From Minisyncoccia bacterium (GTDB lineage Bacteria; Patescibacteriota; Minisyncoccia; Phycocordibacterales; DATDWN01), in contig JBAQUS010000011.1 in assembly GCA_049297675.1 (NCBI GenBank), positions 101,184 through 165,183 of the forward strand: 64,000 nucleotides of DNA, read 5' to 3'. Below are positions 1,745-60,975 of the stretch, in pieces. The stretch's first letter is position 1, and every line of letters begins with the position of its first letter. Below the pieces are notes generated by a model. That model was not told where the DNA came from and ran no database searches. It was given only the letters and a program-made list of their open reading frames with translations. A program made the translations under genes and the position numbers.

Positions 1745-1830
1745 AAATAATGAATGTTCACGAATGTACGAAGTGAAAACATTCTGCTATCTTATTTGTG
1801 TCATTCGTATGAATTCGTAAATTAGTGTGA
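1745..1830 (+). repeat. copy of the palindromic ACGAAT-triplet intergenic element (outside the ribosomal operons)
   Basis: aatgaatgttcacgaatgtacgaag ... tgtcattcgtatgaattcgtaaattag: two arms of inverted ACGAAT/ATTCGT repeats. Confidence 0.5.
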
Positions 1831-1939
1831 ATTACAAAACTCGACGAAAACACATGTTTTCTAGCGTATCTAGGAGTGCGTGAAGCACGAGAGTTAAGGA
1901 AAATTTTCAGTAGAAAATTATTCCGGCGCTAGAAAATAT

Positions 1940-3472
1940 GTGTTGAGTAAGAGTTTTGTAATTCACAATAAATTAGCATCCATCATCATGATTTTATCTT
2001 TTGTTTTCGGTTTCATATCTGGTATCGCAGTTTCATCTTTTTTTAATTTTCCGTTGTGGTCGGTTCTTACTGTTGGAGTAGTTTCAGCAACTCTTTTCCT
2101 TTATAGGTACGAATTGAGAGGTAAGAATCGGTTATTCACTACTATTTTAGCCTTATTTCTCCTAGCTTTTCTTATTGGCACGATAAGAATGTCTTATTCT
2201 GATCTTCATAGAACATCTATTATTCAAAACCTTATTAATAAAGAAATTATAGCCGAAGGTGTAATCGTCTCCGAGCCGGATGTCAGGGAAAATAACACAA
2301 AACTAACAATCGAAATTTCAAAAATTATTCATAAAGAAGTTTTGAGAGAGGAGAATTTTAACGAAAAAGTTTTAGTGACAGTTCCTATTTACCCGGAATA
2401 CAACTATGGTGACAAACTGAAATTAAATTTTACTTTTAAGGAACCAGAAAATTTTGATTCGGGAGAAGGAAGATTTTTTGATTACAAAGGATATCTCCGA
2501 GTCAGGGGAATTTGGTTTGTCTCAAGTTTTGCAAAAGTTGAACTTCTCTCCACTGGTAACGGCAACATAGTAAAAACTCAGTTATTCAAGGTAAAAAAAT
2601 TTTTCACAAGCTCAATAAATAATAGTTTGCCAGAACCGGAATCATCTCTTCTTTCGGGATTACTTTTAGGAAGTAAACAATCTCTCGGAAAAGACTTACT
2701 GACAGAGTTTCAAAGAACTGGAGTTTCACACGTTGTAGTTCTCTCTGGTTATAACATTGCTATCGTTGCAAAAAGTGTAATGTCTTTCATGAGATTTTTA
2801 CCACAAAATATTTCTTTTGGATTTGGAGCGGTCAGTGTAATTCTTTTCACCATTCTCTCTGGCGGTGGAGCATCAGCAGTTCGGGCGTCCATTATGGTAA
2901 TGGTTGCGCTTTTTGCAAAGCAATTTAACAGAGACTACAAAGCTGGAAGAGTTTTGGGACTGACTGTTATTTTGATGCTAGCTCCTAACCCACTTCTTTT
3001 AGTTTTTGATCCATCCTTTCAGCTTTCGGTTTTAGCAACTATCGGAATAATATTTGTCACTCCGATAGTGGAAACTTATTTCAAATGGGTTACGGAGAGA
3101 TTTGGCTTAAGAGAAGTATTGTCCACCACTATTGCAACACAACTGACCGTCCTACCTTTTCTCATTTACAACATTGGATTACTTTCCTTTGTCTCACTTC
3201 CAGCCAATGTCCTCATCTTGGGAACAATTCCAACCACAATGTTTCTCGGATTCGTTACTGGGTTTCTAGGTCTATTTTCGTATTATCTTTCCCTCATTCC
3301 TGCTTTATTTACGTATTCACTTTTGTGGTATCAGCTCAAGGTCGTACACGTTGGAGCCAGTCTTTCATATGGTGCAATAAATCTACCTATTTTCTCTCCA
3401 ATAATTTTGATAATAGTTTATCTAGCTATTTTTCTTGGTATTCATTTTCTTAAAACCAATAAAAATCGATAG
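1940..3472 (+). CDS. comEC: ComEC/Rec2 competence channel, N-terminal and membrane part (DUF4131 + Competence domain); true start may be the internal Met near 1988
   Basis: polytopic membrane protein with the characteristic LLSGLLLGSKQSL ... GVSHVVVLSGYNIAIV ... SGGGASAVRASIMVM Competence-domain motifs. Confidence 0.8.
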   Translation: MLSKSFVIHNKLASIIMILSFVFGFISGIAVSSFFNFPLWSVLTVGVVSATLFLYRYELRGKNRLFTTILALFLLAFLIGTIRMSYSDLHRTSIIQNLINKEIIAEGVIVSEPDVRENNTKLTIEISKIIHKEVLREENFNEKVLVTVPIYPEYNYGDKLKLNFTFKEPENFDSGEGRFFDYKGYLRVRGIWFVSSFAKVELLSTGNGNIVKTQLFKVKKFFTSSINNSLPEPESSLLSGLLLGSKQSLGKDLLTEFQRTGVSHVVVLSGYNIAIVAKSVMSFMRFLPQNISFGFGAVSVILFTILSGGGASAVRASIMVMVALFAKQFNRDYKAGRVLGLTVILMLAPNPLLLVFDPSFQLSVLATIGIIFVTPIVETYFKWVTERFGLREVLSTTIATQLTVLPFLIYNIGLLSFVSLPANVLILGTIPTTMFLGFVTGFLGLFSYYLSLIPALFTYSLLWYQLKVVHVGASLSYGAINLPIFSPIILIIVYLAIFLGIHFLKTNKNR

Positions 3473-7440: not shown

Positions 7441-7546
7441 CGCGATACCAATTTACGAATACATGCGAATGATACGAATAAATACAAAACAGTTGCACCC
7501 ATTCGTTTTATTCGTATAATTCGTTGATTCGCATCGATATTATTAT
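7441..7546 (+). repeat. palindromic ACGAAT-triplet intergenic element (rpsL-rpsG spacer)
   Basis: gcgataccaatttacgaatacatgcgaatgatacgaataaa ... cattcgttttattcgtataattcgttgattcgcatcga; fills the entire spacer. Confidence 0.7.
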
Positions 7547-8017
7547 ATGAGAAGAAAAGTTACAAACAGAAACATAGTCAAGAAAGACAAAAAATACGAC
7601 TCCGATAAAATCGGCAAATTTATCAACTACATAATGGAGAGGGGGCAGAAAGAAACTGCCAGAGGAATTGTTTACGATGCCTTGGAAGAAGTGAAAGAGA
7701 GAACAAAGGTTGAAGATGTTATGGAAGTTTTTGATACAGCTCTGAAAAACACAGGACCTTTGACAGAAGTTCGTTCTCGAAGAGTTGGTGGTGCAAACTA
7801 TCAGATTCCCAGAGAAGTTAGACCGGAAAGAAGGTCTTTCTTGTCCATGAAATGGATAATTGAGGCTGCTCGAGGTGGAAAAGGAAAGAGTATGGCTTTA
7901 AAACTAGCAGATGAAATAATTCTAGCAAGTAAAAACGAAGGTAAGGCTGTCAAGAAGAGAGAAGATACTCATAAAATGGCTGAAGCCAATAAGGCATTTG
8001 CCCATTTTGCATGGTAA
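7547..8017 (+). CDS. rpsG: 30S ribosomal protein S7
   Basis: full-length S7 similarity (RGQKETARGIVYDALEEV ... SRRVGGANYQIPREV). Confidence 0.95.
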   Translation: MRRKVTNRNIVKKDKKYDSDKIGKFINYIMERGQKETARGIVYDALEEVKERTKVEDVMEVFDTALKNTGPLTEVRSRRVGGANYQIPREVRPERRSFLSMKWIIEAARGGKGKSMALKLADEIILASKNEGKAVKKREDTHKMAEANKAFAHFAW

Positions 8018-8050
8018 AAAAGGGCCGAAAGGCCTTTTTTACCATGCAAA
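8003..8050. terminator. roughly 46-bp near-perfect palindrome that can form a long hairpin with flanking A/T runs (bidirectional terminator) after rpsG
   Basis: ttttgcatggtaaaaaagggccgaaaggccttttttaccatgcaaaa. Confidence 0.6.
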
Positions 8051-8244
8051 ATAAATTAAACAGCGCATGGTCGAGAGGGAAAATAGTAGAAAGCTATTTT
8101 CCCTCCGGGTGAGTTTTTCAAAAATCCTCACAAAAACAGAAAAGATCTCAACACCAGGAGAAGCAAAAATAAAAATTTAATAATTAAGAATAATTAAAAC
8201 AAGTTGAGCTTTCTTGTTTTTAATGTATTATTTAGTAATTAACA

Positions 8245-8793: not shown

Positions 8794-8913
8794 TATTAGA
8801 TTGTAATAGAAAGGAATTTTTTTCAACATAGGAATTTCATTTTATGTGCGAACCAGCGAGGGGAGTCTTCGGTTACTCGCTTACCAATTGTGTTCTCTAT
8901 TTTTCCTAATAAA

Positions 8914-8949
8914 ATAAAGTATCATATACGCCATGGCGTATATGATACT
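8914..8949. promoter_or_regulatory. 36-bp perfect palindrome centred on CCATGG, about 80 bp upstream of the Cas2/VapD-like gene
   Basis: aaagtatcatatacgccatggcgtatatgatacttt is identical to its reverse complement. Confidence 0.5.
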
Positions 8950-9027
8950 TTTATGGTATTCTCAGGGCAGGGGAATGTTGTTATAGATTTGTAATATACT
9001 GATGCATTAAATATATAGAAATCTCAA

Positions 9028-11409: not shown

Positions 11410-11476
11410 ATACACTAAAAGAAATCCATATAGCTCAATAATTGACTATAAGTTTATCTTAAGATAAACTTATAGT

Positions 11477-12662: not shown

Positions 12663-12810
12663 ATGATAATATATTAATTTATATGATATTATCATATATT
12701 AATAAGTAACTAAATGTCAAATTTACTTACTGATATTGCTCAAAATAGTCTTTTAGTATATAGTTTTCTCGTATCCCGAGAGGGTATTTTATTTACCACA
12801 ATAAATGAAT

Positions 12811-12923
12811 CCCGTTAGAGGCCGCGGTCGCTTACGGGTTAAGGAAATTAAGTAATTAATTAAAATTATCAATATTAATAAATATGGTATGGTAACGGAA
12901 GACCGCGACCTGCCTCTAACGGG
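12811..12923 (+). promoter_or_regulatory. long imperfect inverted repeat CCCGTTAGAGGCCGCGGTCG ... CGACCGCGACCTGCCTCTAACGGG whose right arm abuts the fusA ATG
   Basis: arms at about 12811-12830 and 12900-12923 around a 69-nt AT-rich loop; ATG at 12924. Confidence 0.5.
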
Positions 12924-15065
12924 ATGAACCGCGATTACACACTAGACAAAGTTAGAAACTTCGGAATCATTGCTCATATTGATGCTGGAAAAACAACCAC
13001 ATCCGAGCGTGTGCTTTTTTATACTGGAATGACTCACAAAATAGGTGAGGTGCACGAGGGGGAGACGGTGACTGACTGGATGGAGCAGGAAAGAGAAAGA
13101 GGTATTACAATTACAGCTGCGGCTATTACCTGTTTTTGGAATCCGACATACAGAGAGAAGGGTAGCAAACCTGAGTATCGTTTTAATATTATAGATACTC
13201 CAGGGCATATTGATTTTACTGCGGAAGTAAAGAGGTCACTTAGAGTACTCGACGGGGCGGTTGTGGTTTTCGACGGAGTGGCGGGAGTAGAACCACAGTC
13301 CGAGACAAACTGGAGATATGCGGATGATGGAAATGTTCCGAGAATCTGTTTTATAAATAAACTCGATAGAACAGGAGCATCATTTGAAAGAAGTTATGCT
13401 TCTATTTTGGATAGACTAACAAAAAACGCTGTCAGGGTTCAGATTCCAATCGGTCTTGAGGACAAGTTTGAAGGAGTTATTGACCTTATGAAAATGAAAG
13501 CTTTTTACTTTGAGGGAAACATGGGTATGCAAATAAAGGAAGCTGAAATTCCTGCTGAGCTTCTAGATGAGGCCAAAAAATATAGAGCAGAGCTTGTCGA
13601 AAAAGTTGTTGGAGAAGATGACAATCTAATGTCTGCGTATCTTGATGGTAAAGAGCCAACTACCGAGGAGCTCAAATTAACCCTGAGAAAAGCTACCCTT
13701 GCTGTAAAACTTGTACCAGTTTTTGCTGGATCAGCACTGAAAAACAAGGGAGTTCAGCTAGTTTTGGATGGTGTTGTTGATTACCTACCATCACCTTTGG
13801 ATATTCCTCCTGTACACGGAACTGATCCTAAAACAGGTGAAGATATTTTCCGAAACGCATCTGACTCAGAGCCATTCTCAGCACTTGCTTTCAAGCTTCA
13901 AAACGATCCTTTCGTTGGACAATTAACTTTCTTTAGAGTTTACTCTGGGACTTTAGAGGCAGGCACTTATGTCTACAATTCGACTACCGGAGAGAAAGAG
14001 CGTCTGGGAAGAATTGTTCGCCTTCAGGCGGATAAGCGTGAGGAAGTTAAAAAAGTTTTTGCGGGGGAGATCGCTGCGGCAGTAGGTCTGAAGTCAGCTA
14101 AAACGTCTCATACGCTATGTGATGAAAATAATCCGATTGTTCTTGATCCTATCAAGTTTGTTGATCCAGTGGTGTCTTTGCGTGTTGAGCCGAAGACCAA
14201 AGCTGATCAGGAAAAAATGGGTATGGCACTTAAAAAACTTTCTGACGAAGATCCAACTTTTGTTATTTCATCAAACTCTGAAACAGGCGAGAGTATTATT
14301 TCTGGAATGGGAGAGCTCCACCTTGAGATCATGGTTGATCGTATGAAGAGAGAATTTGGTGTAGAGGTAAACGTCGGCAAGCCACAAGTGGCATACAGAG
14401 AAACTATATTAGGTTCTGCAGAGGCTGAACACAAATACATAAAACAAACTGGTGGTAAGGGTCAATACGGACACGTTAAATTGACCATCAAACCACTTGA
14501 GAAAATAGAGGAAGGGGCAAAAATCCCTAAAAATGTTAAGAGATACGATGACTTCGAATTTATAGATTCAATCAAAGGTGGTGTTATTCCGCAGGAATTC
14601 ATTCCAGCGGTTGAAAAGGGGGTTCATGAAGCAATGGATCGTGGAATAGTGGCGGGTTACAAAATGGTAAATATTTCTTGCGAACTGACATTTGGATCGT
14701 ACCACGACGTGGACTCATCCGAAATTGCATACAAGATCGCTGCCTCGCAAGCTTTTCAGGAGGCTGCTAGGAGAGCTAGACCAGTAATACTTGAGCCAAT
14801 CATGAAAGTTGAGGCTGTTATGCCTGAGCAGTTCATGGGAGACATTACAGGTTCGCTTTCAGGAAAGAGAGGACAAATAGAAGGTATGGACGAGAGAGGA
14901 ATGCTTCGAGTAATCCACGCCAAAGTTCCACTTTCTGAAATGTTTGGATATACAACTGACATACGTTCAATGACCCAAGGCCGTGGCTCAGTCCAAATGG
15001 AATTTGATCACTATGAAGTAGTACCACCAAACGTGGAGAAAACAATCATTGAATCGAGGAAATAA
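12924..15065 (+). CDS. fusA: elongation factor G
   Basis: [29 protein letters not shown]-domain motifs and full-length EF-G similarity. Confidence 0.95.
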
Positions 15066-15960: not shown

Positions 15961-15985
15961 TTTGAGAGAAGAACTACAGGGATTC

Positions 15986-16085
15986 ATCCCGTTAGAGTTT
16001 TGCTTGTTAACAATGTATTTTAAGTAATAAACAGGTTATCCCATAATATTTTTATATATGTTTGATTATTAAACTCTAACGGGAT
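15986..16085 (+). promoter_or_regulatory. 15-bp perfect inverted repeat ATCCCGTTAGAGTTT / AAACTCTAACGGGAT enclosing a 70-nt AT-rich loop, ending 11 nt before the ATG at 16097
   Basis: arms at about 15986-16000 and 16071-16085. Confidence 0.5.
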
Positions 16086-16096
16086 AAAATTAGTCA

Positions 16097-24346: not shown

Positions 24347-24382
24347 TTGACATTTCATATCCAAAGTATATACTTTGGATAT
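24347..24382. promoter_or_regulatory. 34-bp perfect palindrome overlapping the start of the RelB/DinJ-like antitoxin gene (putative autoregulatory operator)
   Basis: tttcatatccaaagtatatactttggatatgaaa. Confidence 0.5.
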
Positions 24383-24656
24383 GAAAACGATGATAAATAT
24401 AAAAACAGATGTTGAGATAAAAAATCAGGCCAAGAAGGTGGCTAAAGAGCTTGGTATTCCACTCGGGACTGTGCTTAACGCATATTTAAGGGAGTTTATT
24501 CAAACTAAGACGGCTCACTTTTCATTGGTACCAAGAATGACAAAAACCTTGGAGCTACTTTTAGGGTCTGTTGAAAAAGATGTGAGGAAGAGAAAAAATC
24601 TTTCCCAAACTTTTTCTTCTGATAAAGAAGCCATTAGTTATCTAAATAATCTCTAA
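24375..24656 (+). CDS. RelB/DinJ-family antitoxin
   Basis: MINIKTDVEIKNQAKKVAKELGIPLGTVLNAYLREFIQTK matches DinJ/RelB. Confidence 0.6.
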   Translation: MDMKTMINIKTDVEIKNQAKKVAKELGIPLGTVLNAYLREFIQTKTAHFSLVPRMTKTLELLLGSVEKDVRKRKNLSQTFSSDKEAISYLNNL

Positions 24657-30358: not shown

Positions 30359-30622
30359 ATGGAAACCAAAAGCCTAAAAATGGAAGTTTCAAAAAAGAAG
30401 ATCTTGACCGGGATTGTAATTTCAGACAAGATGAAAGAAACTGTTGTAGTAGAGGTGGTAAGGTTTGTTAAACACCCCAAATATGGCAAGTATTATAAGG
30501 TCAACAAGAAGTACAAAGCTCACGATGCTGGGAATACTAAGAAGATAGGGGATAGGGTTCTGATACAGGAATGCAGACCGATATCGAAAGATAAACATTT
30601 CGTCGTAATTCAAGGAGCGTAG
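30359..30622 (+). CDS. rpsQ: 30S ribosomal protein S17
   Basis: [41 protein letters not shown]. Confidence 0.85.
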
Positions 30623-30639
30623 TGACTATGAATTACACG

Positions 30640-30790
30640 ACCCAGCCCTAATTTTACGAAACAATTATGAATAAAATATTAAAAAACCACATATCTGGCA
30701 TTGAAAATAATTTCTTGTCTTGCAGACAAGAAATTGGAATGATACCTTTAGTAAAATTAGGGCTGGGTGGTGATTTTTATAATCGCTTCG
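30640..30790. repeat. roughly 150-bp element bounded by a perfect 17-bp inverted repeat (ACCCAGCCCTAATTTTA / TAAAATTAGGGCTGGGT) with an inner palindrome ttcttgtcttgcagacaagaa; rpsQ-rplN spacer
   Basis: read directly from the sequence; the minus-strand 70-aa ORF inside is probably spurious. Confidence 0.5.
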
Positions 30791-30809
30791 CTCGTTAAAA
30801 ATCAACCAA

Positions 30810-31181
30810 ATGATACAACCAAGATCAATAGTAAAAATAGCTGATAACTCTGGAGCAACTTTGGGCAGAATTTTCAAAGTACTCGGAAGTTCAAAAAAGA
30901 GATATGCCAGTATAGGTGAGAAAGTTGTGTTATCAATCCAGAAGGCTCAGCCAAGAAAGACAACAAAAAAGAAGGATGTTGTTTATGGGCTAGTTGTCAG
31001 ACAAAAGGCTCCGTTTAGAAGAAAGGACGGTTCATATATAAGGTTTGATGAAAATGCAGTGGTTATAGTTATGAAAGACAAACTTGAACCAGTTGCCGGT
31101 CGTGTTTTCGGTCCTATACCTAGGGAAATCGGTGAAGTAGGATATCAAAAGATTATTTCTTTAGCACCAGAAGTGGTTTAA
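30810..31181 (+). CDS. rplN: 50S ribosomal protein L14
   Basis: MIQPRSIVKIADNSGA ... full-length L14. Confidence 0.9.
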   Translation: MIQPRSIVKIADNSGATLGRIFKVLGSSKKRYASIGEKVVLSIQKAQPRKTTKKKDVVYGLVVRQKAPFRRKDGSYIRFDENAVVIVMKDKLEPVAGRVFGPIPREIGEVGYQKIISLAPEVV

Positions 31182-31288
31182 TGCGATGCAAATATACGAA
31201 TACATGCGAATTATACGAATAAAAAAAAGTGTGTGTTGCGTTTATTCGTTTCATTCGTATAATTCGTAGATTAGTATCGAAAACATTT
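31182..31288 (+). repeat. palindromic ACGAAT-triplet intergenic element (rplN-rplX spacer)
   Basis: tgcgatgcaaatatacgaatacatgcgaattatacgaat ... cgtttattcgtttcattcgtataattcgtagattagtatcga. Confidence 0.7.
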
Positions 31289-31507: not shown

Positions 31508-31618
31508 AAAAGCGATACAAATATACGAATGACATGCGAATTATACGAATTAATACCAAACATATCTTGCATTCATTCGTTTCATTCGTATAATTCGTAG
31601 ATTAGTATCGATATAAAC
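31508..31618 (+). repeat. palindromic ACGAAT-triplet intergenic element (rplX-rplE spacer)
   Basis: agcgatacaaatatacgaatgacatgcgaattatacgaat ... cattcgtttcattcgtataattcgtagattagtatcga. Confidence 0.7.
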
Positions 31619-38725: not shown

Positions 38726-41700
38726 ATGCTACGAATAAAAAATTCAATTATACTGTCGCTAGTTTTACTAGCTTTTTTTGTTGCCAAAGATGTAGAAGCT
38801 GTTCCATCTAATTTTGTAAACGAAACAGTTATTAATAGTGGCATAAATCTACCAACAATGTTGGAGTTTCTTCCTGACGGGAGAATGTTAATAGGAGAAT
38901 TTAATGGCAGGATTATTGTGGCACAGCCAGGAGCTAATACTGTTGATCCAACTCCTGTTCTAACTATCACTAACATATTCGGTGATGACATAATCTCTGG
39001 AGGTGAACGAGGTCTAGTTGGAATTACAATAGACCCAAATTTCTCTTCTAATCAATATATATATGTATTTTACACTTCTAATATTCCTCAGAGAGATAGG
39101 GTTTCTAGATTTACTATGGTAGGTAATTCAGCTAACCCATCAAGCGAAGTTATAATTTGGCAGGCAGTTGCAGATTCAACACATACAGATCATCACGGGG
39201 GAGGACTGGGATTTGGACCCGATGGTAAACTTTACATTACTACTGGCGACAATGGTGATCCATCAAGTTCTCAATCCTTGAGTTCAGATCATGGTAAAAT
39301 TTTGCGAGTTAATGCTGATGGTACAGTTCCTACTGATGGTCCGTTTTTTGATGGTGCTGGTCCAAATATTGATTCAATATACGCTCGCGGATTACGCAAT
39401 CCTTATAGAATATTTTTTGATATCGACGGCAAGCTATATATAGGAGATGTAGGGCAGCTTACTTGGGAGGAAATAGATATTGGAGTTTCAGGTGCAAATT
39501 ACGGTTGGCCAATTTGTGAAGGAACGTGTGGTACTTCTGGTATGACTAACCCTATATTGGCTTATCCTCATTTTAATGGTGAGGCTTCAGTCACTGGAGG
39601 TTTAATATATCGAGGCACTCAATTTCCTGTTCAATACCGTGGTGCTTATTTTTATGGTGATTACGCTCTGAACTGGATTAAATATCTAACCTTTGATGCA
39701 AGCGGATCATTAACAAGTAATGTTAACTTTGAACCAATCGATGGTTCAAACAATGGTCCTTATGGAGATCCTGTAGATTTTGCTGTTGGACCAGATGGCT
39801 CTCTGTATTATGTGGATTTTGGCTTTGGAGTACCTAATCCAGCAAGTATTAAAAGAATTAGATATGTGGCATCTAATCTGCCACCTTTGGTGGTAGCTAG
39901 CTCTACCCCAACAGAAGGTTTACCTCCTTTGGCTGTGAACTTCTCATCTATTGGTTCATCTGACCCAGAAAATAATCCTCTAACCTACCTTTGGAATTTT
40001 GGAGATAATGCCACTTCAAGTCAAAGTAATCCAACTCATGTTTACGGATCACAAGGATTATACACAGCTACTTTAACCTTGTCAGATGGAAACAGTTCTA
40101 GTGTTTCTAATCCAATAATAATTTCTGTCGGTAACAAACCTGTTGGAGAAATTACATCACCTTCAAATAATGCATTATTTAGGGCTGGGGATGTTATAAA
40201 CTTCTCAGGTACTGCTTCAGATGTTGAGGATGGAACAAACCTTCCAAGCAGTGCTTATTCATGGACTGTACTTTTCCATCATGAGAGCCATGTTCATCCA
40301 GCTCATGGCCCAGTTTCTGGACCTTCTGGAACATTCACTATATCAAACTCTGGGCATGATTTCTCTGGAAATACTAGTTACGAATTTATTTTGACTGTAA
40401 CTGATTCTTCAGGATTAAAACACGTAAGCTCCACAACAATCTTCCCAGAAAAAGTTGATCTAACATTTAATTCTAATCCTTCTGGACTCACGTTGATAAT
40501 CGATGGGATCCCCCAAATAACACCATTGGTAAAAAACTCTTTAATAGGATTCCAGTATACAGTCGATGCAATTAATCAGTCTTCTGTTTCTAATAATTAT
40601 ACTTTCCAATCTTGGTCAGATAATGGTGCACAATCACATATTATCACTACCCCTATAACAAATCAGACGTATACAGCAACCTTCAATACTTCACCAACGG
40701 CAAACATATCTTTTGATACATCCGTAAATTCAGGAGATCTAAGCAATTTAACTTCTGCTTCATGGACACACACAACAAGTGGCTTAAATCGATATTTAAT
40801 TGTTGGCTTAGCTGGATGGGATAACAATTCTTCTTTATCCGGTGTTACTGTAAGTTATGCAGGAGTGACCATGACTAAACTTGGTGGCCAACAAACTGTA
40901 GCTAACAATAATGCCGTACTATGGGGATTGGCCAATCCCACTCTTGGATCAAACCTAGTTTCAGTTACCAACATTCCTGCATCATTTTTAGAACTAGGAG
41001 GAGGATCCTTGTCATTCACAAATGTTGATCAAGCTAGTTCAACAGGATTGCTGGTTACAGGTATAACAAATACAGCTAATATAAATTTGTCTAATGTCGA
41101 CATGGGAGTAGATATTCTATACGATGGACAAAACGGATCGACAATCAATTACCCGACTCCTGGTGCTAATGAAACAATGAGAGTCAACACAACCTTTAGT
41201 AAGGATGGGGGGAATAATCGAGACTATATGATGATGGGAATTGAAACTGGAACAGGAACTATTCAGATGGATTGGTTGGGCCACGGAGATTACGCTATTG
41301 CTGCAGTTCCTATTAAGGCCATTTCTGGTTCATCTACTCCAGATACAACAGCCCCAGTTCTCTCCAACGGAACACCAAATGGGATTCTACCTGATGGTAC
41401 AACCCAAACAACAATATCTCTGATATCAAATGAGAATGCAACTTGTCGATATAGCACTACAGCAAACACAACTTATATTTCAATGACTGGTAATTTCACC
41501 AATACTGGTACAACTACTCATTCTACTGTTGTCAGCGGATTATCAAATGGAAATAACTATACTTACAACGTTCGTTGCATAGATAGTTCAAATAATGCTA
41601 ACCAAACAGACTTTCCTATAAGCTTTTCAATAAATAATCCTCCACCACCTGACACAATTGCTCCTACAGTAAACATTACAGCTCCAACCACCAACTCAAC

Positions 41701-42568
41701 TATTTCCGGTACTGTTTTTGTAAATGCTAATGCATCAGATAATATAGGTGTTGTTGGTGTCCAGTTTTTACTAGATGGGAATAATTTGGGAACTGAAGAT
41801 ACCAGTTCGCCTTACAGTACATCTTGGAATACTGCCACAACTACTCAAGGAGCTCACATTTTGACTGCTCGTGCTCGTGATGTGGCTGGCAATGTTTCTA
41901 CTAGCAGTCCAATAAACATTAACGTAAATAATTCAATTCCAGGTCTTGTAGCCGCATATAGCTTCAATGAAGGATTTGGAACAAGTCTCTATGACGTCTC
42001 AGGTAATCTTAATCTTGGAACGATCGACGGAGCAACTTGGACTCTAACAGGTAAATACGGTAATGCCCTGATTTTTGATGGATCAAATGATTGGGTGACA
42101 GTTGCCGATTCAAATTCTTTGGATCTTACAAATTCAATTACTATAGAAGCTTGGGTAAATCCATCAATATTACCTAAAGGTTGGAGAACTATCGTAGCAA
42201 AAGAACAAAATGACGGTCTAATGTATTACTTATATGCTTCAAGTCGTAGTGCTAATCAACCTGCTCAAGGAGTTTTTGTAAATAACGCAGAAAGAAATCT
42301 AGTTGGAGGTACACGTCTTGCTATAAACACATGGACCCATGTTGCAATGACATATAATGGTTCTATTCAGAGGTTATATATAAATGGTGTACAAGTTGCA
42401 ACTCGTAATCAAACCGGATCGATGACAAATAGTACTGGTGTATTGAGAATTGGTGGTAATAATCAGTTCGGAGAATTCTTCAATGGTATGGTTGATGAAG
42501 TTAGGATTTGGAACACAGTTAGAACTCAAACCCAAATCCAAACAGACATGAATACACCAATTCCATAA
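38726..42568 (+). CDS. very large secreted multidomain protein: signal peptide, PQQ-dependent sugar dehydrogenase-like beta-propeller, PKD/Ig-like and fibronectin-like repeats, C-terminal LamG/concanavalin-like lectin domain
   Basis: N-terminal hydrophobic signal; GLVGITIDPNF ... YIYVFYT and DGKLYITTGDNGD (SGDH-type propeller); LTYLWNFGDNATSSQSNPTHVYGSQGLYTATLTLSDG (PKD); the C-terminal GNALIFDGSNDWVTV ... NTWTHVAMTYNG ... LRIGG ... FNGMVDEVRIWN is a laminin-G-like fold. Confidence 0.6.
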   Translation: MLRIKNSIILSLVLLAFFVAKDVEAVPSNFVNETVINSGINLPTMLEFLPDGRMLIGEFNGRIIVAQPGANTVDPTPVLTITNIFGDDIISGGERGLVGITIDPNFSSNQYIYVFYTSNIPQRDRVSRFTMVGNSANPSSEVIIWQAVADSTHTDHHGGGLGFGPDGKLYITTGDNGDPSSSQSLSSDHGKILRVNADGTVPTDGPFFDGAGPNIDSIYARGLRNPYRIFFDIDGKLYIGDVGQLTWEEIDIGVSGANYGWPICEGTCGTSGMTNPILAYPHFNGEASVTGGLIYRGTQFPVQYRGAYFYGDYALNWIKYLTFDASGSLTSNVNFEPIDGSNNGPYGDPVDFAVGPDGSLYYVDFGFGVPNPASIKRIRYVASNLPPLVVASSTPTEGLPPLAVNFSSIGSSDPENNPLTYLWNFGDNATSSQSNPTHVYGSQGLYTATLTLSDGNSSSVSNPIIISVGNKPVGEITSPSNNALFRAGDVINFSGTASDVEDGTNLPSSAYSWTVLFHHESHVHPAHGPVSGPSGTFTISNSGHDFSGNTSYEFILTVTDSSGLKHVSSTTIFPEKVDLTFNSNPSGLTLIIDGIPQITPLVKNSLIGFQYTVDAINQSSVSNNYTFQSWSDNGAQSHIITTPITNQTYTATFNTSPTANISFDTSVNSGDLSNLTSASWTHTTSGLNRYLIVGLAGWDNNSSLSGVTVSYAGVTMTKLGGQQTVANNNAVLWGLANPTLGSNLVSVTNIPASFLELGGGSLSFTNVDQASSTGLLVTGITNTANINLSNVDMGVDILYDGQNGSTINYPTPGANETMRVNTTFSKDGGNNRDYMMMGIETGTGTIQMDWLGHGDYAIAAVPIKAISGSSTPDTTAPVLSNGTPNGILPDGTTQTTISLISNENATCRYSTTANTTYISMTGNFTNTGTTTHSTVVSGLSNGNNYTYNVRCIDSSNNANQTDFPISFSINNPPPPDTIAPTVNITAPTTNSTISGTVFVNANASDNIGVVGVQFLLDGNNLGTEDTSSPYSTSWNTATTTQGAHILTARARDVAGNVSTSSPININVNNSIPGLVAAYSFNEGFGTSLYDVSGNLNLGTIDGATWTLTGKYGNALIFDGSNDWVTVADSNSLDLTNSITIEAWVNPSILPKGWRTIVAKEQNDGLMYYLYASSRSANQPAQGVFVNNAERNLVGGTRLAINTWTHVAMTYNGSIQRLYINGVQVATRNQTGSMTNSTGVLRIGGNNQFGEFFNGMVDEVRIWNTVRTQTQIQTDMNTPIP

Positions 42569-42694: not shown

Positions 42695-43312
42695 ATGAAC
42701 TCGTCTACGACCCATTCAAAAAAAGAAAGAACACTTGTAATTATTAAACCTGATGCGATTCAGAGAACTTTAACAGGCGAAGTGGTTTCTCGTTTAGAGA
42801 GAGTTGGTTTAAAACTTATTGCAATGAAGTTGATTGTGGCTACTGCCGATCATATCGAAAAGCATTACACCCTAGACCCAGATTGGCGGCGAGTAACAGG
42901 AGAAAAAACTATCTCAAGTTATAAAAAGAAAGGTCTACCCCCTCCATCTGAAGATCCCTTTGAAATAACCACCAAGCTTCTTATAAAGCTTAAAAAATAT
43001 ATGGTTAGTGGCCCGATTATTCCGATGGTTTGGGAAGGAGCACATGCAGTAGAAATTGTAAGAAAGTTAATTGGAGGTACAGAACCTCTGACGTCTGACG
43101 TGGGTACTATACGTGGGGATTATATGCTCGATTCGTATTCTATGTCAGACGAAGATAATAGATCTTTAAGAAATATTGCTCATGCGTCTGGTTCAGTAAC
43201 AGAAGCTAACATGGAAATTGCTCATTGGTTTAAAGACGAAGAAATTGTTAATTATCGTCTTGTTCAAGACGAGATATTGTATGACGTAAATTTGGACGGG
43301 ATACTAGAGTAA
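42695..43312 (+). CDS. ndk: nucleoside diphosphate kinase (with an internal insertion)
   Basis: ERTLVIIKPDAIQRTLTGEVVSRLERVGLKLIAMKL. Confidence 0.85.
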   Translation: MNSSTTHSKKERTLVIIKPDAIQRTLTGEVVSRLERVGLKLIAMKLIVATADHIEKHYTLDPDWRRVTGEKTISSYKKKGLPPPSEDPFEITTKLLIKLKKYMVSGPIIPMVWEGAHAVEIVRKLIGGTEPLTSDVGTIRGDYMLDSYSMSDEDNRSLRNIAHASGSVTEANMEIAHWFKDEEIVNYRLVQDEILYDVNLDGILE

Positions 43313-43320
43313 AATCTCGA

Positions 43321-43425
43321 CAAACCAAAACCTTTTTAGAGACTCTCGGAGGCTGACGAGCCGAGAGTGAGCAAATTTCTAGCCCAGAAATTATGTGTGC
43401 TCTAAAAAGGTTTTGGTTAGTAAGA
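43321..43425 (+). repeat. copy 1 of an ~85-bp direct repeat containing a nested inverted repeat
   Basis: ttttagagactctcggaggctgacgagccgagagtgagcaaatttctagcccagaaattatgtgtgctctaaaaag. Confidence 0.55.
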
Positions 43426-43717
43426 GATTTTTTACAACCTATCTCAGATTTTTTTCAAGTTGTGTCAGGTCTAGTGAAAGGTATAATTATATGGGGTTAC
43501 ATTAGATATTTTCTACCTAAAATTTTTTTAGGGAGCCCGAATCTTTGTGTCGCGATGAGCGTTTACTCGTTCTGACTTACACATATGAGGGCACCCACCT
43601 GCGGTAAAACGTAGGGGAATATCTATGTGACCCCACTAAAGGCCCCGCCCCTGAAGTATTGGCGGAGTTTTTAGTAAGAGAAGTTTGTTGTACAATGTAT
43701 TAACCGTGAATTAAAAA

Positions 43718-43842
43718 ACTCGTCGAAAACATAATTTTTTAGAGACTCTCGGAGGCTGACGAGCCGAGAGTGAGCAAATTTCTAGCTCAGAAATTATGTG
43801 TGCTCTAAAAAGTTATGTTGAGTAAGAGTTTTGTAATCAACA
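43718..43842 (+). repeat. copy 2 of the same direct repeat, flanked by the conserved gene-proximal module ...gttgagtaagagttttgtaatcaacaATG
   Basis: near-identical to copy 1 (one C/T difference in the core); the same upstream module is found before comEC at 1836-1975. Confidence 0.55.
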
Positions 43843-44250
43843 ATGTCAATGCTTAAATCTAAACTTCTCAGACAAACTGTTGCTTTACTTGCGATCATAG
43901 GAGTTCTATATTTTTTTGCAGAGATTTTTTATCTTCACTGGACTGTTTGGTGGTATGATGTAATGCTCCATTCTCTCTCTGGTGTATGTGCCGGTATGGC
44001 TTATGTTTTCTTTTCTTCCCAATATTTCTGGTCTTTGACAGAAGACAATAATAAAACAATTTTTCTTGGTTTAGTTTTTGTTTTTGTTGTGGGCGTATTA
44101 TGGGAGGTGTATGAGATAAAGTTTGACCATACTTCTTTCAAAGATGGTATTTATTACATCAGAGACACAATTTCTGATTTAATTGCAGATGTTTCCGGGG
44201 GATTTTTTGGCATAACCTACGGTCTAAGGTTTCTTAAAGTTAAGAAATAA
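43843..44250 (+). CDS. hypothetical integral membrane protein
   Basis: ORF track; 4 predicted TM helices. Confidence 0.4.
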   Translation: MSMLKSKLLRQTVALLAIIGVLYFFAEIFYLHWTVWWYDVMLHSLSGVCAGMAYVFFSSQYFWSLTEDNNKTIFLGLVFVFVVGVLWEVYEIKFDHTSFKDGIYYIRDTISDLIADVSGGFFGITYGLRFLKVKK

Positions 44251-44260
44251 AATTATCAAC

Positions 44261-45682
44261 ATGAAAGATAAAAAAGAACTGAACCTGACGTTTTATTCTG
44301 GAGTTGGTACAGTAACAGGAGCAAACTTTATGCTTGAAAGCAAAAACACGAGACTCCTGGTTGACTGTGGACTGGTTCAAGGAGATCCTAATGCTTATGA
44401 ATTAAACAGAAAACCATTTCAATATGATGCAAAGACAGTTGATTATCTTTTTATTACTCATGCACATCTGGATCATATAGGAAGGGTTTGCAAACTTGTC
44501 AGAGAAGGCTTCAGGGGTGTTATTTTCTCGACTCCCGAAACAAAAGAGATCGCAGAAGCAATGTTTTTTGATGCCTTAAAGGTTATGACCATGAAGGAAA
44601 AAGAGATTCAGGACGGCATACACCAAGCTCCGCTTTATGATGCTCAAGATGTCGAAAAAGCTTTGTCTCTGTGGAGGACGATTCCATATCACAAAGAGAC
44701 AAAAATAAATGACGAACTTTCCGTTACTCTCAAAGACGCTGGACACATTCTCGGCTCCTCCATGTACGAGTTTACAGTTTCCCCGAAGTCAGACTTAGGG
44801 GTCGACATAGGAGAGAAAAAGGTAAAAGTGGTATTTACAGGGGACACGGGAAATTCTCCGGCACCACTTTTGAGGGATACTGACAAGATAACTCAAGCTG
44901 ATTATCTAATAGTAGATAGTGTCTACGGTGACAGAAACCACGAACCAAAAGAGGAAAGGGATGAGAGATTCAAGCAGATAGTTTTAGAGACTATAAAAAA
45001 AGGTGGGGCTTTAGTTCTCCCTGCATTTTCAATAGAGAGAACACAGGTTATTCTTTATGAGCTAAACAATATGATAGAAGACAAGATTATTCCTACTGTA
45101 CCTGTATATCTAGACTCTCCGTTGGGGAGAAAAGTAACAGATATATATTCTCGTTCGAATAAGTATTTTAATTCCGGTGTGCAAAAAGAAATAAAAGCCG
45201 GGGATGATATTTTCAACTTTCCCAAACTTTCCATCACTCATGGCTCCTATGATTCAAAAAAGATAGAAGAAATGCCAAACCCGAAAATCATTGTATCTGG
45301 TTCGGGCATGTCATCAGGCGGACGGGTGATATGGCATGAAATGGCTTATTTGCCTGACCCAAAAAGTACAGTGCTTCTCATGGGGTATCAGGCTGTAGGG
45401 ACTTTGGGGAGGAAAATACAAGACAGACCAGCCTCTGTCATGATAAACGGTCAAATGGTGCCGATTAGAGCTAGGATAGAGATGATTTCAGGCTATTCTT
45501 CACATAAGGACTCTGATAACTTAGTTAAACTTGTCGAAGGTACAGCCAATACTGTCAAAAAAGTTTTCGTTGTTATGGGTGAGCCAAAATCCTCCACCTT
45601 TTTAGCCCAACGCTTGCGAGACGAGTTAGATGTTGAGGCTATCTGTCCCGAGAAGGGTAAAATCTATAAGTTAGATGTATAA
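44261..45682 (+). CDS. MBL-fold beta-CASP family ribonuclease (CPSF/RNase J-like)
   Basis: HAHLDHIG (HxHxDH) motif and downstream beta-CASP region (VVFTGDTGN ... LVLPAFSIERTQ ... SGYSSHKD). Confidence 0.7.
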   Translation: MKDKKELNLTFYSGVGTVTGANFMLESKNTRLLVDCGLVQGDPNAYELNRKPFQYDAKTVDYLFITHAHLDHIGRVCKLVREGFRGVIFSTPETKEIAEAMFFDALKVMTMKEKEIQDGIHQAPLYDAQDVEKALSLWRTIPYHKETKINDELSVTLKDAGHILGSSMYEFTVSPKSDLGVDIGEKKVKVVFTGDTGNSPAPLLRDTDKITQADYLIVDSVYGDRNHEPKEERDERFKQIVLETIKKGGALVLPAFSIERTQVILYELNNMIEDKIIPTVPVYLDSPLGRKVTDIYSRSNKYFNSGVQKEIKAGDDIFNFPKLSITHGSYDSKKIEEMPNPKIIVSGSGMSSGGRVIWHEMAYLPDPKSTVLLMGYQAVGTLGRKIQDRPASVMINGQMVPIRARIEMISGYSSHKDSDNLVKLVEGTANTVKKVFVVMGEPKSSTFLAQRLRDELDVEAICPEKGKIYKLDV

Positions 45683-50696: not shown

Positions 50697-51220
50697 TTTA
50701 TAACTCTATGTCAAGGGGTAGTTTGGGCGCCGAAAGGGTGGCTAAGATGTTGAGACTTTTATGAAGAAAGGGCAGTTGGTTAGGAATGATTTTAGTTTCG
50801 TTAATACAAGAATCACTTCATTGCTCAATAGTTTTTTATTAGACGAGGTGTCTTTTACTGAAAGCGTGTCCTGAGCCATGTTTTAAGTATTTTTCAAATT
50901 TTAGTGCCTTATTTTTATTTGGAAATGCGCAAAACCAGATTAATGAGAATGGAAGTTTAGTTTTTGAGTATCTAGACTCCCCGTTATTGTGTTCTTTTAG
51001 TCTATTCTTGATGTTTTCTGTGCTTCCGAAATATAGACTACCATCCTTCTGACTTTTTTAGAATGTAAACATAGTGCATATAAAGAATATATATCCTGCG
51101 TCGCTTGATTACAAGCTATGCAGGATCCACTGCTTCGCTAACAAAAAACCTCACAGGTTGTGTGAAGTTTCTTGTGCTAAAGGTATTTAGTGCCTGCACT
51201 GCGTAGCTTTAGCGAAGCAG

Positions 51221-51617
51221 TGGAGATGCCGATAGTTGAAATCGGGTCCATAAAGTGAATCGAGACAGATCTACAATACTTAGTTTACTTAAAGTTTTAA
51301 TCCGTGTTGCTTAGAGTAAACCAAACACAACACGGACGATCTTCTATTTTCTGGTTTCACTCGAAGAAAGTGAAACTATAACCTTAGTTTATATCAATCA
51401 TCTCCTCCTTAAAGGTTCAAGAGGAGAGACCGTCGTTTAGGTGTTGAGTTTAAGCAACTGCGTAAGCGAAAGCAAAATCGTTTGCTCCAAAATATGGAGA
51501 AGCGGATGCTTTTTTAGATAAGTTTTTTACACTTAATCTTTCCAGACTTTTTAAGAGTTTCTGGAGCTCTGTATTGCCTGAATCAATATCGTCTTTATGT
51601 CAAAACCTGTCATCCCC
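51221..51617 (-). ncRNA. ssrA: tmRNA (ssrA), about 397 nt, predicted tag peptide (A)ANDFAFAYAVA
   Basis: minus-strand 5' end GGGGATGACAGGTTTTGACA resembles GGGGCTGATTCTGGATTCGAC; the 3' end CCGAT-TTCAACT-ATCGG-CATCTCC-A forms a T-arm and a 7-bp acceptor stem with the 5' end, including a G3:U70 wobble pair; internal ORF GCA AAC GAT TTT GCT TTC GCT TAC GCA GTT GCT TAA at about 51450-51485; smpB lies immediately upstream. Confidence 0.6.
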
Positions 51618-55294: not shown

Positions 55295-55368
55295 GCGCGT
55301 ATAGCTCAGTTGGTTAGAGCATCGAGCTTATACCTCGAGGGTCCCACGTTCGAGTCGTGGTACGCGCA
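55295..55368 (+). tRNA. tRNA-Ile with anticodon UAU (reads AUA directly)
   Basis: gcgcgta / tagctcagttggttagagc / a / tcgag-cTTATAc-ctcga / gggtc / ccacg-ttcgagt-cgtgg / tacgcgc-a gives a clean cloverleaf with U33 and anticodon TAT; CCA not encoded. Confidence 0.8.
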
Positions 55369-60897: not shown

Positions 60898-60975
60898 AAA
60901 ATAAAGAAAGACCGTATACAAAATTAACAGAATTATTGTGACAGTAACGAAGGATCGTGATCTGTCTCTAACGGG

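Follow-up and report, generated by a model that had tools for sequence, protein, structure and literature searches.

What is a pair of nearly identical, self-complementary sequences doing on either side of a GC-rich patch behind ndk, and why does part of one recur ahead of comEC? The question is posed by 64,000 nucleotides (nt) of a Minisyncoccia bacterium (assembly GCA_049297675.1, contig JBAQUS010000011.1, positions 101,184 to 165,183), hereafter the window, whose Ndk, LepA and ComEC homologues place it in the Parcubacteria/Paceibacteria of the candidate phyla radiation (CPR). An earlier reading of the letters, here the original prediction, had pointed to two direct repeats about 400 bp apart with nested inverted repeats, to a string and a similar architecture shared with the comEC upstream region, and to a cis-regulatory RNA or small-RNA family as their explanation. 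The two repeats (copies A and B) and their counterpart before comEC (copy C) belong to one dispersed family in Parcubacteria (Patescibacteria/CPR), made up of imperfect palindromes under structural constraint. The GC-rich patch that separates A from B is a gene in its own right, related to neither of them.

One long hairpin in several Parcubacteria

The direct repeats are borne out: 43311-43409 and 43714-43812 are 90% identical across 99 nt at a spacing of 403 nt, and inside them 76 of the 77 positions of the two cores agree, with the arms on either side only ~70% identical. The nested inverted repeats are likewise present, as part of much longer hairpins (inverted-repeat arms I2, I3 and I4 measure 22-49 nt); the 'compact two-level stem-loop' once taken as the unit is only the tip of one hairpin of 125-145 nt, and the 'gene-proximal module' thought to be separate is the 3' arm of that same hairpin. 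This arm holds the 22-mer TGTTGAGTAAGAGTTTTGTAAT, the string common to the regions upstream of the 43843 gene and of comEC, which occurs exactly twice in the window, at 43816 and 1941 (0 expected, from 100 shuffles). An arm of the TGTTGAGTAAGAGTTTTGTAAT type pairs with a AAAACUCG...AAAAC arm ~100 nt upstream, and the 5' partner, AAAACTCG(A/T)CGAAAACA, stands at 1836 and 43715 (AAAACTCGACGAAAACA and its one-mismatch twin). The similar architecture seen before comEC is copy C, whose fold is like that of A and B and whose core sequence is unlike theirs. Folded as RNA, copies A, B and C reach -52.4, -43.3 and -51.0 kcal/mol (z -8.6, -5.6 and -8.8), values attained in no case by any of 200 shuffles; the limits of the outermost stems given by RNAfold with margins were over-extended and were not used. 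Coordinates and covariance-model scores of the three copies are collected in Table 1.

None of the copies is covered by a convincing coding gene. A 60-amino-acid (aa) open reading frame (ORF), 43393-43575, a mechanical call, starts inside copy A. The possibility of a conserved peptide was rejected, the short ORFs of A, B and C being unconserved and the UGAGUAAG stretch merely giving stops in two frames. Copies can pass for gene starts: that of comEC had been placed at 1940, which is a GTG inside copy C, and it is ATG 1988 that fits the homologues, giving 494 aa where full-length relatives have 484-522 aa.

From the outside inwards the element (125-145 nt, or up to ~190 nt with one arm expanded) begins with an AT-rich helix of free sequence that extends 3-18 bp past the core and is bracketed by A4...U4. 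Below it AAAACUC pairs with GAGUUUU, and there follows a 6x6 internal loop in which GUCGAA (variants GACGAA and GUUGAA) faces GAGUAA (variant GAGAAA), the consensus being G-W-Y-G-A-A / G-A-G-W-A-A. Inside the loop come helix P2, then P3, which starts with UUUU and ends with AAAA, and then a three-way junction from which two hairpins issue. Hairpin 1 has a stem of 3-4 bp and a loop that is either GACG or GUGAA/GGGUA, a GNRNA-like pentaloop, and in the copies between ruvC and lepA the loop gives way to an insertion of 40-50 nt in which a CCGUCAA...UUGACGG hairpin is conserved. In hairpin 2 an AU-rich stem of 10-11 bp, with a single bulged A on its 3' side, bears a loop of the AGCA type.

Does the 6x6 loop belong to a known motif? 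Presumably it recalls the bulged-G motif AGUA/GAA of loop E/sarcin-ricin, with G-AGUA-A in the 3' strand and GAA in the 5' strand, but its 6x6 size, its register and the GAGAAA variants set it apart. An assignment by hand as a kink-turn (K-turn) or S-turn misfitted the register of a simple S-turn or standard K-turn and is kept as a resemblance only. A pseudoknot between the GACG loop of hairpin 1 and CGUC of the internal loop would suit the copies with a GACG loop and fails for those with GUGAA or GGGUA.

The evidence that this fold matters is the pattern of compensatory change. Among 15 distinct copies, 43 of the 51 pairs of the model have changed on both sides, and both strands of the 6x6 loop are conserved while the flanking helices covary. 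Paired cells amount to 89.6%, as against 65.4 ± 1.1% in shuffles and 36-47% with the partners slid by 1-3 columns, and the covariation score is 0.640, as against 0.195 in shuffles, none of 500 of which attains the observed values. The 15-copy alignment had been fitted to the model; an independent MAFFT/RNAalifold alignment of 11 copies still has 38 of the 51 pairs changed on both sides. Since the covariation exceeds its controls and holds in the independent alignment, the pairing is under selection, and the compensatory change looked for in a structured single-stranded element, RNA or single-stranded DNA, is there.

The family has many more instances, as the original prediction supposed it might. 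About 20 further copies came from pattern scans and from the covariance model R1, built on 11 copies, in assemblies of Nomurabacteria, Zambryskibacteria and other Parcubacteria. The pattern CTCGNCGAAAAN{70,100}TTGAGTAAGAG, run over one genome per species, gave six true matches, in Nomurabacteria GW2011_GWA2_40_9, in two other Patescibacteria assemblies and in three contigs of the metagenome-assembled genome ELA422, plus one chance match in a Vibrio; a metagenome scan gave two new copies and a viral sequence scan none. R1 recovered the pattern and metagenome copies at 110-150 bits, the reverse strand scoring 16-49 bits. It also found, close by, diverged copies (L009:1415-1558, L008:2834-2977, L016:7379-7522 and L020:3175-3314; L numbers are our handles for sequences outside the window) and variants without the internal loop (L020:5131-5301, L016:6369-6493 and L022:7954-8073). 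The lepA-region loci of four more genomes added L029:18088-18229, L027:11471-11611 and L028:11779-11974, and one more copy, L029:11806-11980, which R1 did not list, was recognised by eye. With filters off R1 found no members in the window beyond A, B and C, and no copy was present in the stretches examined of L003-L005, L024, L025, L031, L032 and L035.

Some loci carry 2-3 copies per 8-13 kb. Within a genome the cores are near-identical with arms that differ, as in A and B and in the three ELA422 copies, the shared block being 77 nt in A and B but ~110 nt in ELA422; such near-identical interiors within differing outer helices point to recent copying, or to gene conversion of the interior.

Similarity to anything already named was sought widely. 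The Rfam scan envisaged at the outset was run: with Rfam 15 at gathering threshold the whole window returned only transfer-messenger RNA (tmRNA) and tRNA and nothing for the element, and permissive scans over A, B and the copies in L016 and L028 gave just noise-level matches to microRNAs, long non-coding RNAs and small nucleolar RNAs; across the window and four relatives, neither threshold produced a family for the element. Copy B had no blastn match in 5,426 Escherichia coli genomes, which hold ERIC and REP, no similarity was found between the copies and viral contigs, phages or plasmids, and literature searches brought up no description of the element. The family is apparently undescribed so far.

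Strand, context and occupancy

The element has polarity, its loops not being self-complementary. On the strand of the model, cells with G-U or U-G number 27 and those with A-C or C-A 10, and in 20 of 22 copies that strand gives the more stable RNA fold (mean advantage 6-9 kcal/mol), five of the six copies that are antisense to both neighbours among them; these strand counts are not independent, given the kinship of the copies and the G-rich sequence common to their junctions. Polarity and strand bias together favour a single-stranded form, RNA or possibly DNA, and disfavour a purely double-stranded DNA site.

Where do the copies lie? They fill whole intergenic spacers, starting 0-30 nt away from a stop or start codon, often 0-10 nt from a stop codon or overlapping it (A, which begins within the ndk stop codon, TAA 43310-43312, as well as L016a, L016b, L020a, L022 and L008b) and ending 1-35 nt from the following gene. 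Scored in the orientation of the model, eight lie in the same direction as both neighbours (A, B, C, L009a, L009b, L016b, L015a and L018, the upstream gene of the last being off the contig), six between convergent genes (L008a, L016a, L020a, L022, L028a and L029b), six antisense to both neighbours (L014a, L008b, L020b, L020c, L029a and L013, the downstream gene of the last being off the contig) and two between divergent genes (L016c and L027a). With eight sense and six antisense copies in co-directional spacers, an orientation preference relative to genes is lacking. Nor do the downstream genes have a common theme: they include those for DUF2238, ComEC, PyrG, Tgt, YraN and a type II secretion system ATPase and, after A, the 6S-like gene treated below.

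Occupancy is both patchy and, at certain junctions, recurrent. The spacers between ruvB and yebC (L008, L020) and between ruvC and lepA (L020, L028, L029) are occupied in different genera by copies whose helices are completely rewritten and whose fold and loop type are retained. In the closest relative, L001, copy A is absent: at the position of GAGTAA[copy A]TTTT in the window, the empty site reads GAGTAAATTTT. Behind the 6S-like gene L001 carries its copy in inverted orientation, and two L001 contigs end inside that inverted copy. In L022 the syntenic spacer between ndk and DUF2238 is free of the element, and so are the comEC upstream regions of L032 and L035, whose ComEC proteins are 68-69% identical to that of the window. 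No closer ComEC than 69% is in the database, that one being without a copy, and no orthologous copy C was found for a short-distance comparison of substitutions.

What the element may do

Which known repeats does it resemble? In behaviour the nearest analogue is ERIC. ERIC sequences (also IRU) are imperfect palindromes of ~127 bp, strictly intergenic, in either orientation and across genera, with insertion size variants, no protein and an unsettled function; the present element shares the size class, the long imperfect palindrome, the intergenic position, the indifference to orientation, the conservation between genera, the size variants and the lack of a protein, but has no sequence similarity to ERIC, lives in another phylum with very small genomes and has a three-way-junction tip, a strictly conserved 6x6 loop and an outer helix free in sequence. 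REP/BIME and REPIN-RAYT systems are likewise dispersed intergenic hairpin repeats, often between convergent genes and near-identical within a genome; REP, however, comes in units of 20-40 nt and REPIN is a pair, whereas here there is a single unit of 125-145 nt with a branched tip. The Correia/NEMIS repeats of Neisseria and other miniature inverted-repeat transposable elements (MITEs) are non-coding repeats of 100-150 bp that fold into long hairpins and are co-transcribed with neighbours, and Correia/NEMIS repeats can act as terminators, as RNase III substrates or as a source of promoters. In MITEs the terminal inverted repeats are conserved and the target site is duplicated, whereas here the outermost helix varies.

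Three specific identifications were rejected. For a MITE, the outermost helix differs even among copies with an identical interior, and no flanking direct repeats are seen. For an integron attC site, suggested by AAC...GTTGAGT, the AAC/GTT pair is present and the adjacent R-box triplets fall in the unpaired 6x6 loop; there are no arrays, and the copies are solitary among housekeeping genes (ndk, lepA, ruvB, polA). For a hammerhead (CUGACGAG), CUGACGA is found in A, B and L020b only, the other copies having GUGAA, GGGUA or other GACG loops, and Rfam ribozyme models gave no match to the copies.

The reading that we favour, tentatively and with something short of even confidence, is that the element is a structured palindromic repeat, dispersed like ERIC and REP, and serves as an RNA hairpin at transcript boundaries. 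The copies would be carried on neighbouring transcripts as long hairpins, attenuating read-through and shielding RNA ends from exonucleases. Copy A, given the U6 tail behind it, may form the 3' terminus of the ndk mRNA, and for comEC and the DUF2238/beta-CASP operon copies C and B, respectively, would provide the leader hairpin at the 5' end. Copy B stops 1 nt short of ATG 43843, the start of the DUF2238-like gene, and copy C 19 nt ahead of ATG 1988, distances which leave no room for a promoter, so that both must be transcribed through; the position of L015a, upstream of a canonical terminator, also speaks for transcription across the element. The conserved loop and junction might then be the recognition site for a factor that processes, copies or homogenises the element. 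In support of a boundary hairpin, the A4...U4 bracket is symmetric, as in bidirectional terminators, and the copies are found preferentially at gene ends; REP, ERIC and the processing hairpins of phage T7 sit at 5' or 3' transcript ends. Promoter-like boxes at A, at C and at a plain palindrome at 8916 also speak in its favour.

After GAG comes a U-rich stretch and before CUC a symmetric A-rich one, the two being equally strong (4.8 and 5.1 of 8 nt) with no asymmetry between U-tract and A-tract. Canonical terminators adjoin several copies. A plain intrinsic terminator is unlikely.

Several observations sit badly with the boundary hairpin. Only 3 bp close the helix under the 6x6 loop, and a consensus terminator scan called none of the copies, A, B and C included. 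Neither a transposase nor a target duplication nor a fixed terminal repeat turned up. The asymmetric loops are equally conserved in copies antisense to both neighbours, and G-U exceeds A-C on the model's strand by 27 to 10; a passive hairpin read from whichever strand its neighbours dictate does not explain a conserved, strand-specific fold. The conserved polarity is an unexplained observation.

Could the copies, then, be genes? Multi-copy stand-alone small RNAs, each transcribed along the model's strand from a promoter of its own and ending at GAGUUUU, a rod of 125-190 nt that binds a protein through the loop-E-like loop and the junction, would account for strand-specific conservation of sequence and fold in every context, antisense copies included, for the excess of G-U pairs and for forward scores of 75-150 bits where the reverse strand gives 30-49 bits or nothing. 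A promoter-like TTGTRT-N16/17 with a -10 box lies at A and at C, as it does at the 6S-like gene; the box at C overlaps the start of the outer helix and agrees in form with the promoter-like box of the 6S-like gene. On both strands of the window (128 kb) TTGT[AG]T-N16-17-[TG]ANNNT has only 11 matches, though the pattern was defined after these cases had been seen and is weak evidence for that reason. Just upstream of L008a and of its orthologue L028a, TGTTATAYAAAA is conserved and resembles an extended -10 box, and one lineage has the additional conserved CCGUCAA...UUGACGG hairpin. Yet over 22 copies sigma-70-like promoters are not enriched on the model's side (mean 9.61 against 9.65, background 8.9), a looser pattern matched copy A only, many copies begin so near the upstream stop codon, or over it, that a promoter would lie in coding sequence, and no partner protein was identified. 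We regard this reading as rather unlikely; of the small-RNA family once proposed, the structured family is confirmed and the stand-alone small RNA is only possible. A bolder version, that of a new class of strand-specific functional RNA confined to CPR bacteria, multi-copy and rod-shaped, with its own promoter everywhere, which could act in trans, for instance by titrating or guiding a conserved protein, or be processed or catalytic, is doubtful.

Candidate internal promoters of the reverse strand, TCAACA-N17/18-[C/A]ATAAT in B and C, were also considered, since in every antisense copy they would drive the gene downstream, and rejected; the boxes are no better in antisense copies, are missing in some, and are probably a by-product of the AU-rich hairpin 2.

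A selfish element is also on the unlikely side, though it has several observations behind it. It would be non-autonomous and without any host function, a single strand (of DNA, or of RNA that is copied back) that spreads in folded form and inserts at the centres of AT-rich palindromes, and its fold and loops would be features recognised by a mobilising enzyme, as with REPIN/RAYT or the hairpins derived from IS200/IS605. Random orientation and patchy distribution among relatives fit this, as do near-identical cores within a genome inside different and individually perfect outer palindromes, assemblies that break at copies and the empty site in L001; plain zero-spacer palindromes in the genome could be targets, and Y1 (IS200/RAYT-type) transposase genes exist in related Parcubacteria. 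There is, however, no target-site duplication and no fixed boundary, the shared blocks of 77 and ~110 nt suit gene conversion better, the viral, phage and plasmid collections gave no match, and the copies at the ruvB-yebC and ruvC-lepA junctions keep their fold through wholesale compensatory change across genera, which suggests selection at the locus. As for a RAYT-type partner, the short GC-rich hairpins on either side of the Y1_Tnp genes of L028 and L029 are unrelated to the element, and no such gene was seen adjoining a copy, in a search that could not take in the window's own genome as a whole. These two genes (L028:2304-3098 and L029:9173-9986), each between its own hairpins (TGCAGATGGCGCTCTTCTGCA, TTGCTAACACTCGGTGTTAGCAA), are in themselves a REP/RAYT-like arrangement in CPR genomes, the R1 matches lying elsewhere.

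The cis-regulatory reading of the original prediction, a gene-specific leader of riboswitch or attenuator kind for the 43843 gene and comEC, is commended by the position of B and C, which immediately precede start codons and lie on the coding strand, and by a complex conserved fold with a multi-stem junction, but both the orientations and the orthologous loci exclude it, and it must be called exceedingly improbable: in place of a consistent co-oriented position upstream of genes there are the mixed 8/6/6/2 contexts, copy A and at least 11 others lie at 3' ends or antisense to both neighbours, the downstream genes are a miscellany, orthologous comEC (L032, L035) and DUF2238 (L022) genes do without the element, and no Rfam riboswitch or leader matches.

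A 6S-like gene and other features of the window

Table 1. Positions of the element copies, the 6S-like gene and associated signals in the window
Feature	Position	Strand	Description	R1 cmsearch span and score
Promoter-like TTGTGT-N16-TAAATT	1796..1823	+	at upstream edge of copy C; putative function
Copy C	1825..1968	+	outer helix GUGUGAAUUACAAAACUC/GAGUUUUGUAAUUCACA; 6x6 loop GACGAA (1843-1848) / GAGUAA (1945-1950)	1825-1969, 139.6 bits
Promoter-like TTGTAT-N17-GATACT	43277..43305	+	in last ndk codons, ending 5 nt before copy A
Copy A	43311..43433	+	outer helix AAAAUCUC/GAGAUUUU, U-run to 43433; loop 43319-43324 / 43417-43423	43301-43442, 109.9 bits
Copy A core	43333..43409	+	helix P3 and three-way junction
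Promoter-like TTGTGT-N16-TATAAT of 6S-like RNA	43460..43487	+	read from the sequence
6S-like RNA gene	43491..43640	+	closing stem, central region with a small hairpin per strand, apical stem
Intrinsic-terminator-like hairpin CCGCC...GGCGG, then AGUUUUU	43641..43672	+	end of 6S-like RNA
Copy B	43706..43841	+	outer helix; 6x6 loop GUCGAA (43722-43727) / GAGUAA (43820-43825); core 43736-43812	43704-43844, 119 bits

What of the GC-rich patch between A and B, 43560-43680, which had been said to have no ORF? For the most part it does lie outside the listed ORFs, the 60-aa ORF that starts in copy A reaching its first bases, and it is probably a divergent 6S RNA, to judge by fold, signals and relatives. 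Like 6S RNA (SsrS) the molecule is predicted to be a rod of ~150 nt with closing stem, central region and apical stem and with promoter-like and terminator-like signals of its own, and its fold has a z of -6.5. Homologous RNAs follow ndk in L001, where Ndk is 91% identical, and in the syntenic L022, whose order is adk-map-ndk-RNA-DUF2238-beta-CASP; the equivalent hairpin and U-run are found in both, and an alignment of the three sequences keeps the 6S-like fold with 15 pairs changed on both sides. Unlike an orthodox 6S RNA it scores far under the Rfam gathering score of 46.4, though 6S is the best match both here (21.1 bits, E 0.048) and in the L022 spacer (19.3 bits); the L001 homologue has no Rfam 6S match. 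A structured GC-rich RNA is similarly placed in L004 and aligns weakly. Since the 296-nt ndk-DUF2238 spacer of L022 holds the RNA without copies, A and B are later additions around the 6S-like gene.

Right behind the terminator of the 6S-like gene, TTAGTAAGAGAAGTTT (43671-43686) repeats the 3'-arm motif of copy A (43417-43432), perhaps as the remnant of an arm, perhaps by coincidence; the corresponding position in L022 has TTGTTAAGAG, which resembles the -35 region of the DUF2238 promoter there.

The local order is thus ndk (42695-43312), copy A, the GC-rich RNA, copy B, 43843-44250, a small membrane protein whose positional counterpart in L022 carries DUF2238, and 44261-45682, a beta-CASP metallo-beta-lactamase RNase. 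Copy C sits between rnhA (1041-1733) and comEC, the latter (1988-3469) having the Pfam domains Competence and DUF4131. Upstream of ndk, 38726-42568 encodes a secreted-type protein of 1280 aa with GSDH, PKD, Big_7 and LamG domains, and with ndk directly after map in the syntenic L022 this gene may be an insertion. The tmRNA lies at 51218-51617 on the reverse strand (112 bits, tag peptide ...ANDFAFAYAVA) and a tRNA-Ile with anticodon UAU at 55295-55368 on the forward strand.

Hairpins of other kinds abound. A second family, CCCGTTAGAG ... an AT-rich 60-90 nt ... GTAACGRAAGAYCGYGAYCTGYCTCTAACGGG, is found at 12809-12925, 15983-16088, 60930-60975 and L027:4771-4885; its 3' arm abuts the start codon (CTCTAACGGG followed directly by ATG), and it precedes fusA/EF-G (12924), lepA in L027, the gene of a VWA/SpaA surface protein (60976, 3' half only) and, from 15983-16088, 8 nt ahead, ORF 16097. 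It could be a leader or an operator pair. A third repeat, with hairpins of CGAATTATACGAATAAA / TTTATTCGTATAATTCG, occurs at 7466-7523, 31204-31266, 31537-31597 and ~1760-1830, one related copy being just upstream of copy C. Intergenic palindromes at 8916-8951, 24353-24386, 11445-11476 and 8004-8052 include perfect ones of 32-36 bp without a spacer and one with 20-bp arms and a 9-nt spacer; directly before that at 8916 lies TTGTGT-N16-TAAAAT (8888-8915), a promoter-like box of the kind that copy C and the 6S-like gene have. The inverted repeat at 30596-30812, with 66-nt arms 85 nt apart and 76% complementary, stands just upstream of a 123-aa ORF at 30810 and at 17.8 bits with R1 is not a member of the element family.

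Outside the window, the yebC-ruvB spacer of a Zambryskibacteria contig (L027:7927-8295) holds a GC-rich stretch of ~250 nt with a terminator-like end, possibly a structured RNA. In L018, on the reverse strand, a 17-bp palindrome, TGTGTAAAAATTACACA, occurs both ~75 nt upstream and ~35 nt downstream of the element at 562-705, the downstream one, a possible operator, being followed closely by a TACAAT box and the start of yraN.

Genomes of CPR/Patescibacteria are of ~1 Mb and have been thought to lack repeats, and very little is known of the non-coding RNAs in them. Here is an element of the ERIC/REP kind in a lineage where none was known, one whose copies break assemblies and mark spots where relatives differ in gene order. 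The 6S-like gene after ndk is, for its part, a probable housekeeping RNA annotation for the lineage. An element that keeps 51 pairs by compensatory change and a 12-nt asymmetric loop near-invariant from genus to genus, while ignoring orientation, is either a very well adapted parasite of minimal genomes or a functional RNA that has so far gone unrecognised.

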